Shown: positions 51,669 to 56,468 of the stretch, one piece after another
Position numbering within the stretch: position 1 is the stretch's first letter
Layout: each line of letters starts with the position of its first letter
DNA from: an uncultured Mucispirillum sp.
Lineage (GTDB): Bacteria; Chrysiogenota; Deferribacteres; Deferribacterales; Mucispirillaceae
NCBI GenBank assembly: GCA_944323205.1
Contig: CALURO010000008.1
Coordinates: 42,660-106,659 of the forward strand
DNA length: 64,000 bases
Direction: 5' to 3'
The notes under the pieces: generated by a model
Told to the model about the DNA's origin: nothing
Seen by the model: only the letters and a program-made list of their open reading frames with translations
The model's database searches: none
Translations under genes and position numbers: made by a program

Positions 51669-51902
51669 CTACTTTTTATTATCTTCAATATTTTTAATTA
51701 ATTCAGATAAAGAAATCACTAACCCGCGGGAAAGTTTTTCAAGCACTGATAATGTAGGCGATGAAGGATTTTTACTTTCCAGCTTTTGCAGATATTTATA
51801 ATCAATATCAGACATTTCCGCCAGCTTTTCCTGAGTAAGCCCTTTGCTTTTTCTTAAATTCCTAAGCCTTTCTGCAAAAATATTATTTATATCCATTGAC
51901 AA
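51669..51902 (-). CDS. XRE-family HTH regulator (C-protein-like size)
   Basis: LRNLRKSKGLTQEKLAE...YLQKLE...PTL..L.KL. Confidence 0.88.
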   Translation of the reverse strand: MSMDINNIFAERLRNLRKSKGLTQEKLAEMSDIDYKYLQKLESKNPSSPTLSVLEKLSRGLVISLSELIKNIEDNKK

Positions 51903-52349
51903 ATATTAATTAAAATAGTATCATTCAAACACCACATATATGCGGTTATATATTTTTAGATTACAGGTGCTTATAATGCGCGATGGTCTCTTTTTATACT
52001 TACTGCTTTATTTGTGTTTATAGGCTATGTAGTTTCATGTTTCATATATAATTAGTAAACAAAATAATACTTAATATCCAATATAACATCAGAAAATCAT
52101 TTATCAAGTATGCAGTATCTAATACATACCCAACCAAGAGATTTCATCCTGCCTTATATAAAAATCTTCATAAAATTATATATAATAATATAAAGGTTAC
52201 TTCTATGAAAAAGATAGTGCTTATTATGGTGTGTCTTATGATTAGATAATAATCAATATATTTTAATTTATTTTATTCTTCATATTAGATATTCATTACT
52301 TTTCTGTATTTTAAATACACATTAATATTAATTTTACCATAAAAACAGC

Positions 52350-52376
52350 TTGACATTCCCCCCCCCATGATATAAT
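52350..52376 (+). promoter_or_regulatory. Sigma70 promoter with a C9 tract in the -35/-10 spacer
   Basis: TTGACA-TT-C9-ATGA-TATAAT: 15-bp spacer and extended -10 TG. Confidence 0.85.
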
Positions 52377-52406
52377 GGGCGAAAAGAAAAGGAAAAAGAG
52401 GGGTTT

Positions 52407-52928
52407 ATGAAGAAAATAATTATCACACTTTTTACTATTTTTGCACTATTTGGCTGTGCTGAAGATGAAAAAAATCAACCAATACCACTTCCATATCCAC
52501 AAGATAATAATACTGGTGGTGATAACAATACTAATAATATAGATAAATATTATAAAGTGTTGTTAAGTTGTATTTCAAATATTTCTACAAGCGACAATGT
52601 ATCAACATGGGGTTTTGAGCCTTATAATCCAACTAATTATTTACATGTTTACATCGCAGATAAATTAGGTAGACCTAGTATAAACTCCAAAAAGATTGTA
52701 TATGTTTCTGGTGATTGGGGATATACATCCTTAAATTTTTTTTATAATTTCAATATATATGATAACAATACAGCTGATCCATCATATCTTCATCAAATGA
52801 CATTTGATTCACCAGATAAAACTTCTTTATCCAGTATTGAACATAATATTATTGATTATTATACAAAATTTATAAAAACCGAGCCATATAAAAACTTATA
52901 TGAACATATTATTTACGTAAAAGAATAA
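52407..52928 (+). CDS. Putative lipoprotein
   Basis: MKK, h-region, lipobox LFGC, then a P/N-rich linker. Confidence 0.8.
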   Translation: MKKIIITLFTIFALFGCAEDEKNQPIPLPYPQDNNTGGDNNTNNIDKYYKVLLSCISNISTSDNVSTWGFEPYNPTNYLHVYIADKLGRPSINSKKIVYVSGDWGYTSLNFFYNFNIYDNNTADPSYLHQMTFDSPDKTSLSSIEHNIIDYYTKFIKTEPYKNLYEHIIYVKE

Positions 52929-52942
52929 TATGCGAGAATTAC

Positions 52943-53533
52943 ATGAATAATATATTATTACCCAATAAAGATAATTATATCTTTGTAGATTTTGATGACA
53001 CAATAATATATACCAGCTATGCAAATTTCCTTGCGTATAAAAGAGCAGTGCATGAAATATTAAATATAGATATTACTTTCATTGACGAAAGATTTACGCA
53101 TAATACTTTATTTCAATTAGAAAAGGATAAAAATATAATAAATAAAATTATCAACTTAAAAAATCACTATTATACTACATTCTTACAATATACTTACATT
53201 AATGATTTTTTGCTTAATATTTTAAAAAATCTTAATAACAATAAAATCATTTTAGTTACAAATGGAAATAAAGACAGGGTTGAAAATACATTAAAATATC
53301 ATAATATTCATACCTTGTTTCACAAACAATTTTATATAAAACCTTCCAATAAATCTTTTAGTAAATATTTTGAAGTCTTTAATCAAATTTATGAAAACAA
53401 TATTAATATAGAAGATATATTTATATATGAAAACAGTGAAGTAGAAATATTAAAAGCTGTAAACTGTGGTTTTACAATAGATAAAATATATCAAATACCA
53501 CTGAAAATATATACAAAAAAGGAGATAATATGA
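52943..53533 (+). CDS. HAD-family hydrolase (ShosT N-half-like)
   Basis: FVDFDDTII DxD motif; LVTNG; IYENS. Confidence 0.78.
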   Translation: MNNILLPNKDNYIFVDFDDTIIYTSYANFLAYKRAVHEILNIDITFIDERFTHNTLFQLEKDKNIINKIINLKNHYYTTFLQYTYINDFLLNILKNLNNNKIILVTNGNKDRVENTLKYHNIHTLFHKQFYIKPSNKSFSKYFEVFNQIYENNINIEDIFIYENSEVEILKAVNCGFTIDKIYQIPLKIYTKKEII

Positions 53534-54186
53534 ATGAATTCATTATTAGAAAAAATAATTTTTTAAAAAAGGATATAAAAGGATATTATCATACAGATTA
53601 TCTTGGGTGGCAATGTCCTGGCAACCCTGATTATCTAAATATTTTCAAAAATACATATAACTCATATAGCATAGAAAAATTAAAAGATGCTTATAAAATT
53701 ACTGAAGATATTTTATTCCATGAAATATATGAAATATATAATAGACTAAATGAATATAAAATTACAGTATGTGTTGTGCCTCGTTCAAAAACAAATCTTC
53801 AAGATACACAATTGTATTTTTTAAAATCTGTTTCAGATGCTATCAGTAGTATTTTTGATGAATATGCCCTTGTTGATTATAAAAGCGAGGAAGTTATATC
53901 ACTTATAGATGATGGAACAGATTTTATCACTAGACACACAAATACTTATACCACACATTTAGGCGAAAAAGCACCTAACTATATTAATGATGGACTAAAA
54001 CCATATCCTGGAATTACCAAAGATACATGCCATATTTCTCCAGAAATAAAAGGTAAACATATATTATTAATTGATGATATTTATACTAAAAATGTAAATA
54101 TTGATGAAGATACAATACAAGCATTGTTAGATAATGGAGCAACTGGTGTTACCTTTTACGCTGTTGCAAAAACTATTGATAGATAA
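53530..54186 (+). CDS. Phosphoribosyltransferase-fold protein (ShosT C-half-like)
   Basis: VVPRSK; PRPP loop ILLIDDIYTK; ATGA overlap with its own GGAG RBS. Confidence 0.8.
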   Translation: MNEFIIRKNNFLKKDIKGYYHTDYLGWQCPGNPDYLNIFKNTYNSYSIEKLKDAYKITEDILFHEIYEIYNRLNEYKITVCVVPRSKTNLQDTQLYFLKSVSDAISSIFDEYALVDYKSEEVISLIDDGTDFITRHTNTYTTHLGEKAPNYINDGLKPYPGITKDTCHISPEIKGKHILLIDDIYTKNVNIDEDTIQALLDNGATGVTFYAVAKTIDR

Positions 54187-54219
54187 TATAATCACAAATA
54201 ATATTTTTTGGAGTATATA

Positions 54220-55176
54220 ATGAAATATTCTGATAATGTAGTAAACATTTTAGCATTAAAGCAATATAAAGGTATAGGAAACAGCTGGATTTCAAAAAAT
54301 ATACATGGTAATGAAACGATTGAAGATATTGTTTATATGCTTAATAGTAAGTCAAATATTACATCTGCACAAGAATTTAGCAATATTAGGTATAAAATAT
54401 TAAATGAGTTATCAGTCATATCACAACATATTGATGGCGCAATTGCCATTGGTGATAGTAATTTTCCAGTATGTAGAGGAAATGTAAAAGACAGCGAACG
54501 CCCTGTTGTTCTTTTTTATCGTGGAAACATAAATTTATTAAACCATGACAATAAAAATATTGCAGTAATTGGAGTTTTAAAACCAGACATCTATACTGAA
54601 AATTTTGAAAAAAAAGTAGTTGAAGAATTAGTAAAACAAAATAATACAATAGTTAGTGGTCTTGCTTTAGGCTGTGATAGTATTGCACATATACAAACAT
54701 TAAAATCAAAAGGTAAAACTATAGCAATACTTCCGAGTCCTATACATAATATATTACCTGCTTCTAATAAACAACTTGCAGAAGAAATTGTTTTAAATGG
54801 TGGTTTATTAATTACTGAATATTACACTGATGCAAAATATAAAGAATTAAACAGCAGATATATTGAAAGGGATAGATTACAGGCTTTATTTAGTGATTGT
54901 GTAATTTTATCAGCAAGTTATGCAAAAAATGACTTAGGAAATGACAGCGGGTCAAGACATGCAATGAATTATGCAAAATCATATTCTATTAAAAGAGCGG
55001 TATTAGAACCAAAAGACAATAATGCAATGTATGATTTAAATAGACAACTTATTAATGAAGATAAAAAAATAATTATTATAAAACAAAATAATATAGAAGA
55101 ATCTATTCAGAAATTTGAAAATGTAAAAGGCAGTGTTACTTATAAACAACTAGATTTATCGTCTTTTTTATCATAG
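54220..55176 (+). CDS. DprA/Smf-like protein (ShosA-like)
   Basis: P.VLFYRGN, IVSGLALGCDSIAH, TIAILP, LLITEY, ERDRLQA, SGS.HA. Confidence 0.88.
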   Translation: MKYSDNVVNILALKQYKGIGNSWISKNIHGNETIEDIVYMLNSKSNITSAQEFSNIRYKILNELSVISQHIDGAIAIGDSNFPVCRGNVKDSERPVVLFYRGNINLLNHDNKNIAVIGVLKPDIYTENFEKKVVEELVKQNNTIVSGLALGCDSIAHIQTLKSKGKTIAILPSPIHNILPASNKQLAEEIVLNGGLLITEYYTDAKYKELNSRYIERDRLQALFSDCVILSASYAKNDLGNDSGSRHAMNYAKSYSIKRAVLEPKDNNAMYDLNRQLINEDKKIIIIKQNNIEESIQKFENVKGSVTYKQLDLSSFLS

Positions 55177-55237
55177 TTATGATATCTTTTCATTAATAAA
55201 TCATACCATTCTCTTATATTACAAACAGGGAGAAGGT

Positions 55238-55390
55238 ATGAAAGCTATTGATATTGCCAATTTTTTTATTGATTACAATGCACATTCTATAGATGATACT
55301 ATTACAAATTTAAAACTCAATAAAATGCTGTATTCTGGCAAAGTAAACTATTTACTTTATATATATTATATAGTTTTATTTCCAATTTAA
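55238..55390 (+). pseudogene. Truncated Panacea/DUF4065 (SocA-like) antitoxin fragment
   Basis: MKAIDIANFFI...ITNLKLNKMLY followed by unrelated sequence and a stop at codon 51. Confidence 0.65.
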
Positions 55391-55703
55391 AAAATACTCC
55401 CATGTTATTTCATTTTCTTTGCGACTTAATTTCTTATGAACTGTTTTTTAGGAACGCTTTGCCAGCTACTTGTCTGAACGAAGTGAGTTGTAGTGGCAGT
55501 GGAGAAAAAACAGTGAATGTCTAAGGAATTGGAGCATAAGAAATGAAATAACTAACATAAGATTTATGAGATTTGCGGCGGTCTGATAGTGTAAACTTCA
55601 TTTTGTAAATATATTTATGATTATACTTAATTATAACATTAAAATAAGAGTGATATTATAATCTTTAAATTGACTTAAATAATTTATTTAATATAATTAC
55701 TTT

Positions 55704-56468
55704 ATGATTTTAAGTGTTTCCCGAAGAACAGATATTCCTGCATTTTATGCTGAATGGTTTATGGAAAGGTTAAGGCAGAAATATGTGCTTGTCCGTAACC
55801 CCTTTAATATTCACAGTATTTCCCGTATTCCTTTATCACCAGAAAATGTTGATGCTATTATATTCTGGACTAAAAACTCTAAACCAATTCATAAATATTT
55901 AGATGAAATAGATAAACTTGGATATAAATATTATTTTCAATATACTATTACTCCATATAAAAAAGATTTAGAAGAAAAAGTGCAGGATAAAAAAGAAATT
56001 GTAGAGACATTTAAAAATCTATCTGAAAAAATAGGCAGTGAAAAAGTGATACTGCGGTATGACCCTGTAATATTAAGTGATAACTACACTATAGATTTTC
56101 ATAAAAAAGCTTTTGCAAGGCTTTGTGATTTGCTGGCACCTTATACTAAAAAGATTGTATTCAGCTTTCTTGATGACTATAAAAAAATATCTAAAAATAT
56201 AAAGCAGTTAAATATTAAGGAAATTTCAGCAGAAGAAATGTGTATAATGGCAGAATATTTTGCAGACACTGCCAAAAAATATAACCTTAAAATAGAAAGT
56301 TGTGCAGAGCAGATTGATTTAGAAAGATTTGGTATAAATCACGGCAAATGTATAGATAATGAATTAATAGAAAAAATTACAGGATATAAATTATCTGTTG
56401 GCAGAGATAACCAAAGAAATGCCTGCGGCTGTATAAAATGTATAGATATTGGAGACCATATATGGTAA
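55704..56468 (+). pseudogene. DUF1848 family protein, apparently C-terminally truncated
   Basis: MILSVSRRTDIPAFY, FWTKN, RYDP, QRNACGCIKCIDIG, then a stop before the usual terminal Cys motif. Confidence 0.7.

Follow-up and report, generated by a model that had tools for sequence, protein, structure and literature searches.

The DNA window analysed here, a stretch of 64,000 nt from an uncultured Mucispirillum sp. (contig CALURO010000008.1, positions 42,660 to 106,659), carries at 52943-55176 three consecutive genes for a HAD-type phosphatase, a stand-alone phosphoribosyltransferase (PRTase) and a DprA-like protein, which probably (roughly 65%) make up a three-gene toxin-antitoxin module of the ShosTA kind, i.e., an abortive-infection-type defence module. 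The domains, the catalytic residues, the three-gene linkage, the recurrent fusions, the accessory distribution and the exchange of cassettes are shown below, and from analogy with ShosTA of Escherichia coli we infer the toxicity of the module, its rescue, its action against phage and the substrate of the phosphatase; the link of the predicted toxin to E. coli ShosT itself is remote. ShosTA is known from E. coli APEC O1 and from P2-like prophage hotspots (Kimelman 2012; Rousset 2022; Millman 2022; PMC11961720, PMC12961424), with structures under 8zva-8zvd and 9vzo, and in E. coli ShosT (424 aa) a HAD-like pyrophosphatase domain at the N-terminus (residues 1-164) is fused to a PRTase domain (residues 165-424) (PMC11961720). 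The genes and repeats in question are as follows.

52943..53533, + strand: HAD-IA phosphatase, 196 aa (alignment A2, family profile, AlphaFold2 model)
53530..54186, + strand: stand-alone ShosT-like PRTase, 218 aa, predicted toxin (PADLOC ShosT PDLC03962, alignment A1, AlphaFold2/Foldseek)
54220..55176, + strand: ShosA-like DprA-family protein, 318 aa, predicted antitoxin (PF02481, PADLOC ShosA; alternative TTG start at 54208)
53515-23 and 53565-73, + strand: two 9-nt direct repeats AAAAAAGGA (DNA alignment A3 with the related locus L092)

An open reading frame check of the window located four genes, the trio and a preceding lipoprotein gene, where a previous sequence-only reading had placed them (52407-55176). 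The translational coupling described in that reading was likewise recovered, the HAD stop and the PRTase start overlapping as ATGA at 53530-53533 with a GGAG of the PRTase's own at 53521-53524. For the DprA-like protein, the ATG at 54220 appeared to be a likelier start than the TTG at 54208, because it is preceded by a GGAG (54210-54213) and the gene calls of two independent assemblies both give the 318-aa product.

The proposed kinship of the trio with ShosTA was well supported by the DprA-like protein, which matched the PADLOC ShosA model (PDLC03961) over its full length at 2.9e-53 and Pfam PF02481 at 3.6e-41. In a search of solved structures, ShosA (9vzo/8zva) came first (8e-20) and true DprA stood behind it (1.5e-14), making ShosA the nearest solved relative. 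The match to PADLOC PsyrA was 1e-18. The DprA-like gene lay directly downstream of the PRTase gene in 58 of the 62 family loci surveyed below.

The PRTase was matched weakly in Pfam (E 0.087) and at 1.1e-7 by the PADLOC ShosT model PDLC03962. The same model matched all 30 aligned PRTases of the family, the best of them only at 5e-13, and it was therefore presumed to have been built on a sister family. The phosphoribosyl pyrophosphate (PRPP) loop, ILLIDDIYT, contains D182, D183 and T186, which were invariant in the 30 sequences (alignment A1), and the equivalent change in ShosT, D331A/D332A, abolishes toxicity (PMC11961720). The AlphaFold2 model (predicted local distance difference test score, pLDDT, 86) adopted a PRTase fold, and its top Foldseek matches were hypoxanthine-guanine PRTases (HGPRTs) together with ShosT (8zvc/8zvd, ranks 2 and 4), with ComF at rank 14. 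ShosT was not found when the single PRTase sequence was searched against solved structures, whereas the fold search found it, weakly.

The HAD protein was also weakly matched in Pfam (HAD_2, E 0.009), and as a single sequence it gave no meaningful match among solved structures; its family profile reached HAD-IA phosphatases at 1e-15. The catalytic motifs were intact, namely D16-x-D18-x-T20 (DxDxT), T106, K141 and E163 (alignment A2), and the AlphaFold2 model (pLDDT 94) showed a capped HAD-IA fold with template modelling (TM) scores of up to 0.74. A profile of fused HAD-PRTase proteins (A4) matched the HAD-type inorganic pyrophosphatase BT2127 at 2.5e-6, a protein also reported to be the structural neighbour of the N-terminal domain of ShosT (PMC11961720). 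None of the PADLOC models matched any of 32 HADs, and since the detection models miss the HAD gene, annotation pipelines under-describe such loci.

Our survey covered 62 loci, each representing one species and containing a full-length PRTase, drawn from more than 10 phyla, including Bacteroidota, Pseudomonadota, Bacillota, Chloroflexota, Planctomycetota and Thermodesulfobacteriota; 58 of them had an intact context. A homologue of the window HAD was present as a separate gene beside the PRTase and DprA-like pair in 54 of the 58 intact loci (93%), either directly upstream (HAD-PRTase-DprA, 34 loci) or directly after the DprA gene (PRTase-DprA-HAD, 20 loci), the latter order forming one well-supported Bacillota clade (99/95). 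The split in the window, previously argued to be genuine from the ATGA overlap, thus proved to be a family trait. No fused HAD-PRTase occurred among the 62 surveyed loci, but fusions turned out to be recurrent within the same PRTase family: the best 150 cluster representatives comprised 96 stand-alone proteins, 20 N-terminal HAD fusions, 3 PRTase-DprA fusions and 31 proteins with other extensions, and in the tree the HAD fusions, interspersed with split relatives, required at least four separate origins. Such repeated fusion (Rosetta-stone evidence) suggested a joint function of HAD and PRTase as a single unit. As for the size of the family, at least 919 relatives of the stand-alone PRTase of about 205 aa were obtained at E ≤ 0.001 (1,000 candidates scored, 90% clusters), and a PRTase profile search of 1.84 billion cluster representatives returned 439 clusters, with E ≤ 1e-10 for 337. 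The cluster representatives P0168, P0255 and P0268 are candidates for PRTase-DprA single polypeptides, that is, toxin-antitoxin fusions.

A natural, in-frame fusion was also met in the nearly identical relative L092 (1384-2574), whose single 396-aa HAD-PRTase protein is 83% identical to the window in the HAD part and 94% in the PRTase part (BLASTP). Relative to the window, it shows a 50-nt deletion between the two AAAAAAGGA repeats (alignment A3). PRTase residues 1-14 are missing from the fused protein, and with them the invariant F4 and L12 as well as the first β-strand predicted in the model; the product may be either a working fusion or an inactive toxin.

Like E. coli ShosTA, the trio combines a predicted PRTase toxin that has the DD of the PRPP loop with a hydrolase of HAD fold and with a predicted DprA-like antitoxin encoded immediately downstream, and it is likewise accessory and island-borne. 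It differs in that its hydrolase is encoded on its own, in translational coupling with the PRTase, and has a cap domain and a classical DxDxT site, and in that the PRTase, of 218 aa, is only remotely related to ShosT. PADLOC-DB v2 recognises the PRTase and the DprA-like protein (PDLC03962 and PDLC03961) and leaves the HADs unmatched. PsyrTA/RqlHI, in which a helicase-PRTase toxin is paired with a DprA-like antitoxin, resembles the trio in its DprA-like partner and through two Bacillota PRTases of the family that are joined to an SF1 helicase about 1,000 residues long; the window PRTase, however, has no helicase and matched PADLOC PsyrT only at 0.015. In these two loci, L025 (1684-5349) and L043 (Christensenellales, Evtepia), the family PRTase is the C-terminal domain of a protein of 1,221-1,251 aa with a UvrD-like SF1 helicase and is followed downstream by DprA and HAD genes, an arrangement that forms a bridge towards PsyrT-like architectures.

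In the papers searched, ShosTA is made up of two genes, the toxin being a fusion, or else short ShosT forms are presented, and a SAR11 paper interpreted short ShosT as domain loss. No description of a split or three-gene ShosTA with a separate HAD gene was found in the literature searched, and the trio in the window is the Mucispirillum copy of a widespread, apparently undescribed three-gene form. The earlier proposal of an undescribed architecture accordingly stood as far as this literature is concerned, but not as something peculiar to the window, as the family is large and PADLOC recognises two of the three genes. In this family the two activities of ShosT are naturally separated, and the separation in hundreds of members, with two conserved gene orders and repeated re-fusions, argues for the phosphatase being an integral third component. 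The family thereby offers simple material for probing the role of the phosphatase and the acceptor of the PRTase.

By analogy with E. coli ShosT, the PRTase would be the toxin, using PRPP, disturbing nucleotide and DNA metabolism and causing replication stress, and the separate HAD-IA phosphatase would do the job of the ShosT N-terminal hydrolase domain, most likely by removing pyrophosphate or another phosphorylated product and thus driving the transferase reaction. The DprA-like antitoxin would bind single-stranded DNA, recruit or work with RecA and repair the damage, and would fail when infection stops its synthesis or floods the cell with single-stranded DNA. In Mucispirillum, the module is the cargo of a cassette that can be swapped by recombination and that is bounded by the C9 promoter and the lipoprotein signal sequence on one side and by a Panacea gene and DUF1848 on the other.

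Several observations weigh against this assignment. The Foldseek match of the PRTase model to ShosT was weak (E about 5e-4, TM 0.40-0.44) and on par with the matches to HGPRTs, and E. coli ShosT (8zvb-8zvd) was reached neither by profile A1 (E ≤ 1) nor by profile A4 (E ≤ 10). A fold search with the HAD model likewise failed to place ShosT among its best 50 matches, and the active site of this HAD, with its classical Asp nucleophile, differs from that of ShosT, which is described as Mg-independent (PMC11961720). The literature searched contained no toxicity or defence test of any member of the subfamily. In addition, neighbouring genes of the cassette in the window are decayed, so that activity at this locus is not guaranteed.

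With regard to the phosphatase, it may instead be a safety valve or second antidote that dephosphorylates a toxic product of the PRTase. Such a role would suit its intact classical phosphomonoesterase site, its nearest relatives being sugar-phosphate and nucleotide phosphatases, as well as the position of the HAD gene in the Bacillota clade, where it follows the antitoxin gene and not the toxin gene, and the hydrolase-domain mutant of E. coli ShosT, in which toxicity was barely altered (PMC11961720). We nevertheless regard this role as unlikely, given that a single enzymatic unit accounts better for the repeated HAD-PRTase fusions and for the ATGA coupling and that the published ShosT data indicate a positive role of the hydrolase domain (PMC11961720). 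A far less credible explanation is that the genes serve housekeeping competence (comF/dprA) or nucleotide salvage. The C-terminus of the PRTase did show weak matches to NCBIfam ComF/GntX (E 0.003-0.006), and the DprA-like protein scored 119 bits against NCBIfam TIGR00732; this score, however, is below the cut-off of 191, and a better housekeeping dprA (237 bits) lies separately on another contig of the genome, C20. Moreover, 3 of 61 related genomes carried the PRTase, while the 12 other species of the genus had none, and together with the low G+C content (22-27% in the cassette vs 31-36% in the flanks) this restricted carriage indicated that the module is accessory; the slot that it occupies is, in addition, interchangeable with a DarT-NADAR toxin-antitoxin pair, as described below.

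The surroundings of the trio, from the divergent regulator to the right-hand frame of the cassette, contain the following features.

51669..51902, - strand: XRE-type helix-turn-helix (HTH) regulator, divergent from the cassette (Pfam HTH_3 8e-13; PADLOC capH-like and control-protein-like matches)
52350..52376, + strand: promoter TTGACA-TT-C9-aTGaTATAAT, with C9 at 52358-52366 (read from the sequence)
52407..52928, + strand: small lipoprotein of 173 aa, encoded at the head of the operon (signal peptide ...FALFGC, lipobox ...LFGC)
55238..55390, + strand: remnant of a SocA/Panacea-domain antitoxin gene, about 47 codons (73% identity with the N-terminal part of the Panacea proteins that are full-length in L092 and L094)
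55357..55635, no strand assigned: copy of a dispersed genomic repeat, after the Panacea remnant (blastn against the whole genome, 72-96% identity)
55704..56468, + strand: DUF1848 gene without its C-terminal residues (about 65), right-hand frame of the cassette (Pfam DUF1848 1e-96)

The lipoprotein gene heads the operon, and the sequence-only reading had taken its product for a possible envelope component of the system. Consistent with a four-component system, in which the lipoprotein would be an envelope sensor or effector working with the HAD, PRTase and DprA-like proteins, the scans revealed no strong promoter or terminator in the 14-bp gap between the lipoprotein and HAD genes, as expected for co-transcription, and the type of lipoprotein tracks the type of cargo: type 1 accompanies ShosTA-like cargo in six loci (window, L001, L091, L092, L093 and L106), and type 2 accompanies DarT-NADAR at two different chromosomal sites. 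We consider such a system improbable, as the distribution and divergence of the lipoprotein speak against it. No lipoprotein homologue was found in any of the 62 family loci outside Mucispirillum, and among 5.8 billion proteins there were 16 homologues, all contexts examined being Mucispirillum-type loci. The syntenic relative L003 has HAD-PRTase-DprA without HTH and lipoprotein genes, the same C9 promoter there standing directly before, and driving, the HAD gene. Across the relatives, identity to the window was 33-61% for the lipoprotein, compared with 59-94% for the PRTase, 76-91% for the DprA-like protein and 84-97% for the flanking core genes, and in L092 the lipoprotein was 53% identical vs 94% and 91% for the PRTase and the DprA-like protein. 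An analogous lipoprotein, moreover, heads the mechanistically unrelated DarT-NADAR pair, and the HAD, PRTase and DprA-like enzymes are cytoplasmic. The supposed envelope component was therefore not borne out; the lipoprotein is best read as a fast-evolving leader of the cassette with its own role, perhaps a surface or exclusion function, and not as a part of ShosTA.

The three-gene ShosTA-like module appeared to be one of several cargos of a single chromosomal slot. The relatives share a common frame of RluD, a TPR protein, an AI-2E transporter, IclR, Pyridox_ox_2, the slot and DUF1848. The slot contains the HTH gene (- strand), the lipoprotein, HAD, PRTase and DprA in L001, L091, L092 and L093, and in L094 the HTH gene (- strand), a different lipoprotein, DarT, the NADAR antitoxin, a Panacea antitoxin and a PemK-like toxin. 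The HTH gene accompanies the lipoprotein in L001, L091-L094 and L106, and is absent from L003 and from the paralogous cassette on C4 described below; a search for its operator gave AT-rich near-palindromes only, e.g., 51931-51946. The SocA/Panacea antitoxin and PemK-like toxin beside DarT-NADAR occupy 7051-7937 of L094, and as this pair adjoins DarT-NADAR, the slot stacks several toxin-antitoxin modules.

A paralogous cassette in the same genome, at C4:40700-44900 (L108:2221-6393), consists of a C9 promoter, a type-2 lipoprotein, DarT, NADAR, a Panacea fragment, the dispersed repeat and an intact 325-aa DUF1848 gene. Its lipoprotein is 75% identical to that of L094 and has only the signal peptide in common with that of the window. 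DNA homology between the window and C4 was limited to three blocks, 52341-52467 (88%), which covers the promoter, the 5' untranslated region and the signal peptide, 55183-55337 (94%) and 55363-56462 (96%), and since these blocks lie in the flanks, 52468-55182 behaves as exchangeable cargo between common anchors. The right-hand part of the cassette in the window has decayed. The toxin partner of the Panacea remnant is missing, and the DUF1848 gene, although 96% identical in DNA to the intact C4 paralogue, has a truncated end just before tRNA-His; its relatives are 317-326 aa long and continue ...EYNTCxHKCLYCYAN, so that the window copy is without the CxxxCxxC motif. The dispersed repeat has 16 other matches in the genome, and some related copies abut C9 tracts. 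No terminator was detected inside the cassette by the terminator scan.

The promoter in front of the lipoprotein gene has a 15-nt spacer and an extended -10, and the C9 homopolymer lies inside the -35/-10 spacer. As the consensus promoter scan allows spacers of 16-18 nt only, it did not list this promoter. With a strict pattern, the same promoter was found at seven loci of the genome, before genes for lipoproteins, secreted proteins or membrane proteins, six with C9 and one with C10, and a looser listing gave six further promoters with a C8 or C9 spacer; a pattern scan of the metagenome for the promoter revealed no further contig. At the locus itself, the tract reads TT-C9 in the window, L092, L106, L107 and L003, and T-C8 in L094, while the paralogous promoters carry C8 to C10. 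Slippage control of the cassette promoter, as proposed earlier, is plausible.

Such tracts are not confined to promoters. The genome (31.5% G+C) contains 60 C/G runs 7-10 bases long; 47 of these have a length of exactly 9, against an expectation of about 0.3 nine-base runs estimated from base composition. The runs occur in the spacers of promoters, within genes and where the dispersed repeat ends. The runs look like a set of contingency loci and may form a phasome, the alternative being an assembly artefact in homopolymer length; the literature searched held no description of phase variation in Mucispirillum. Taken together with the cassette structure, they point to a broader scheme that we put forward tentatively, as one that is possible but rather doubtful: toxin-antitoxin defence modules of Mucispirillum would reside in exchangeable cassettes, bounded by the poly-C promoter and the lipoprotein signal on the left and by Panacea/DUF1848 on the right, with the cargos swapped by homologous recombination and possibly switched together with a variable surface lipoprotein within some 60 poly-C/G contingency loci. 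The locus is a possible example, in a gut symbiont, of defence genes placed under a promoter of the contingency type. Simple-sequence contingency loci are known, for instance, as poly-G tracts in Campylobacter jejuni. The Mucispirillum genome resembles them in having many C/G runs, with a modal length of 9, in promoters and genes against a low G+C content, and differs in that the tract of this locus was steady at C9 across four assemblies.

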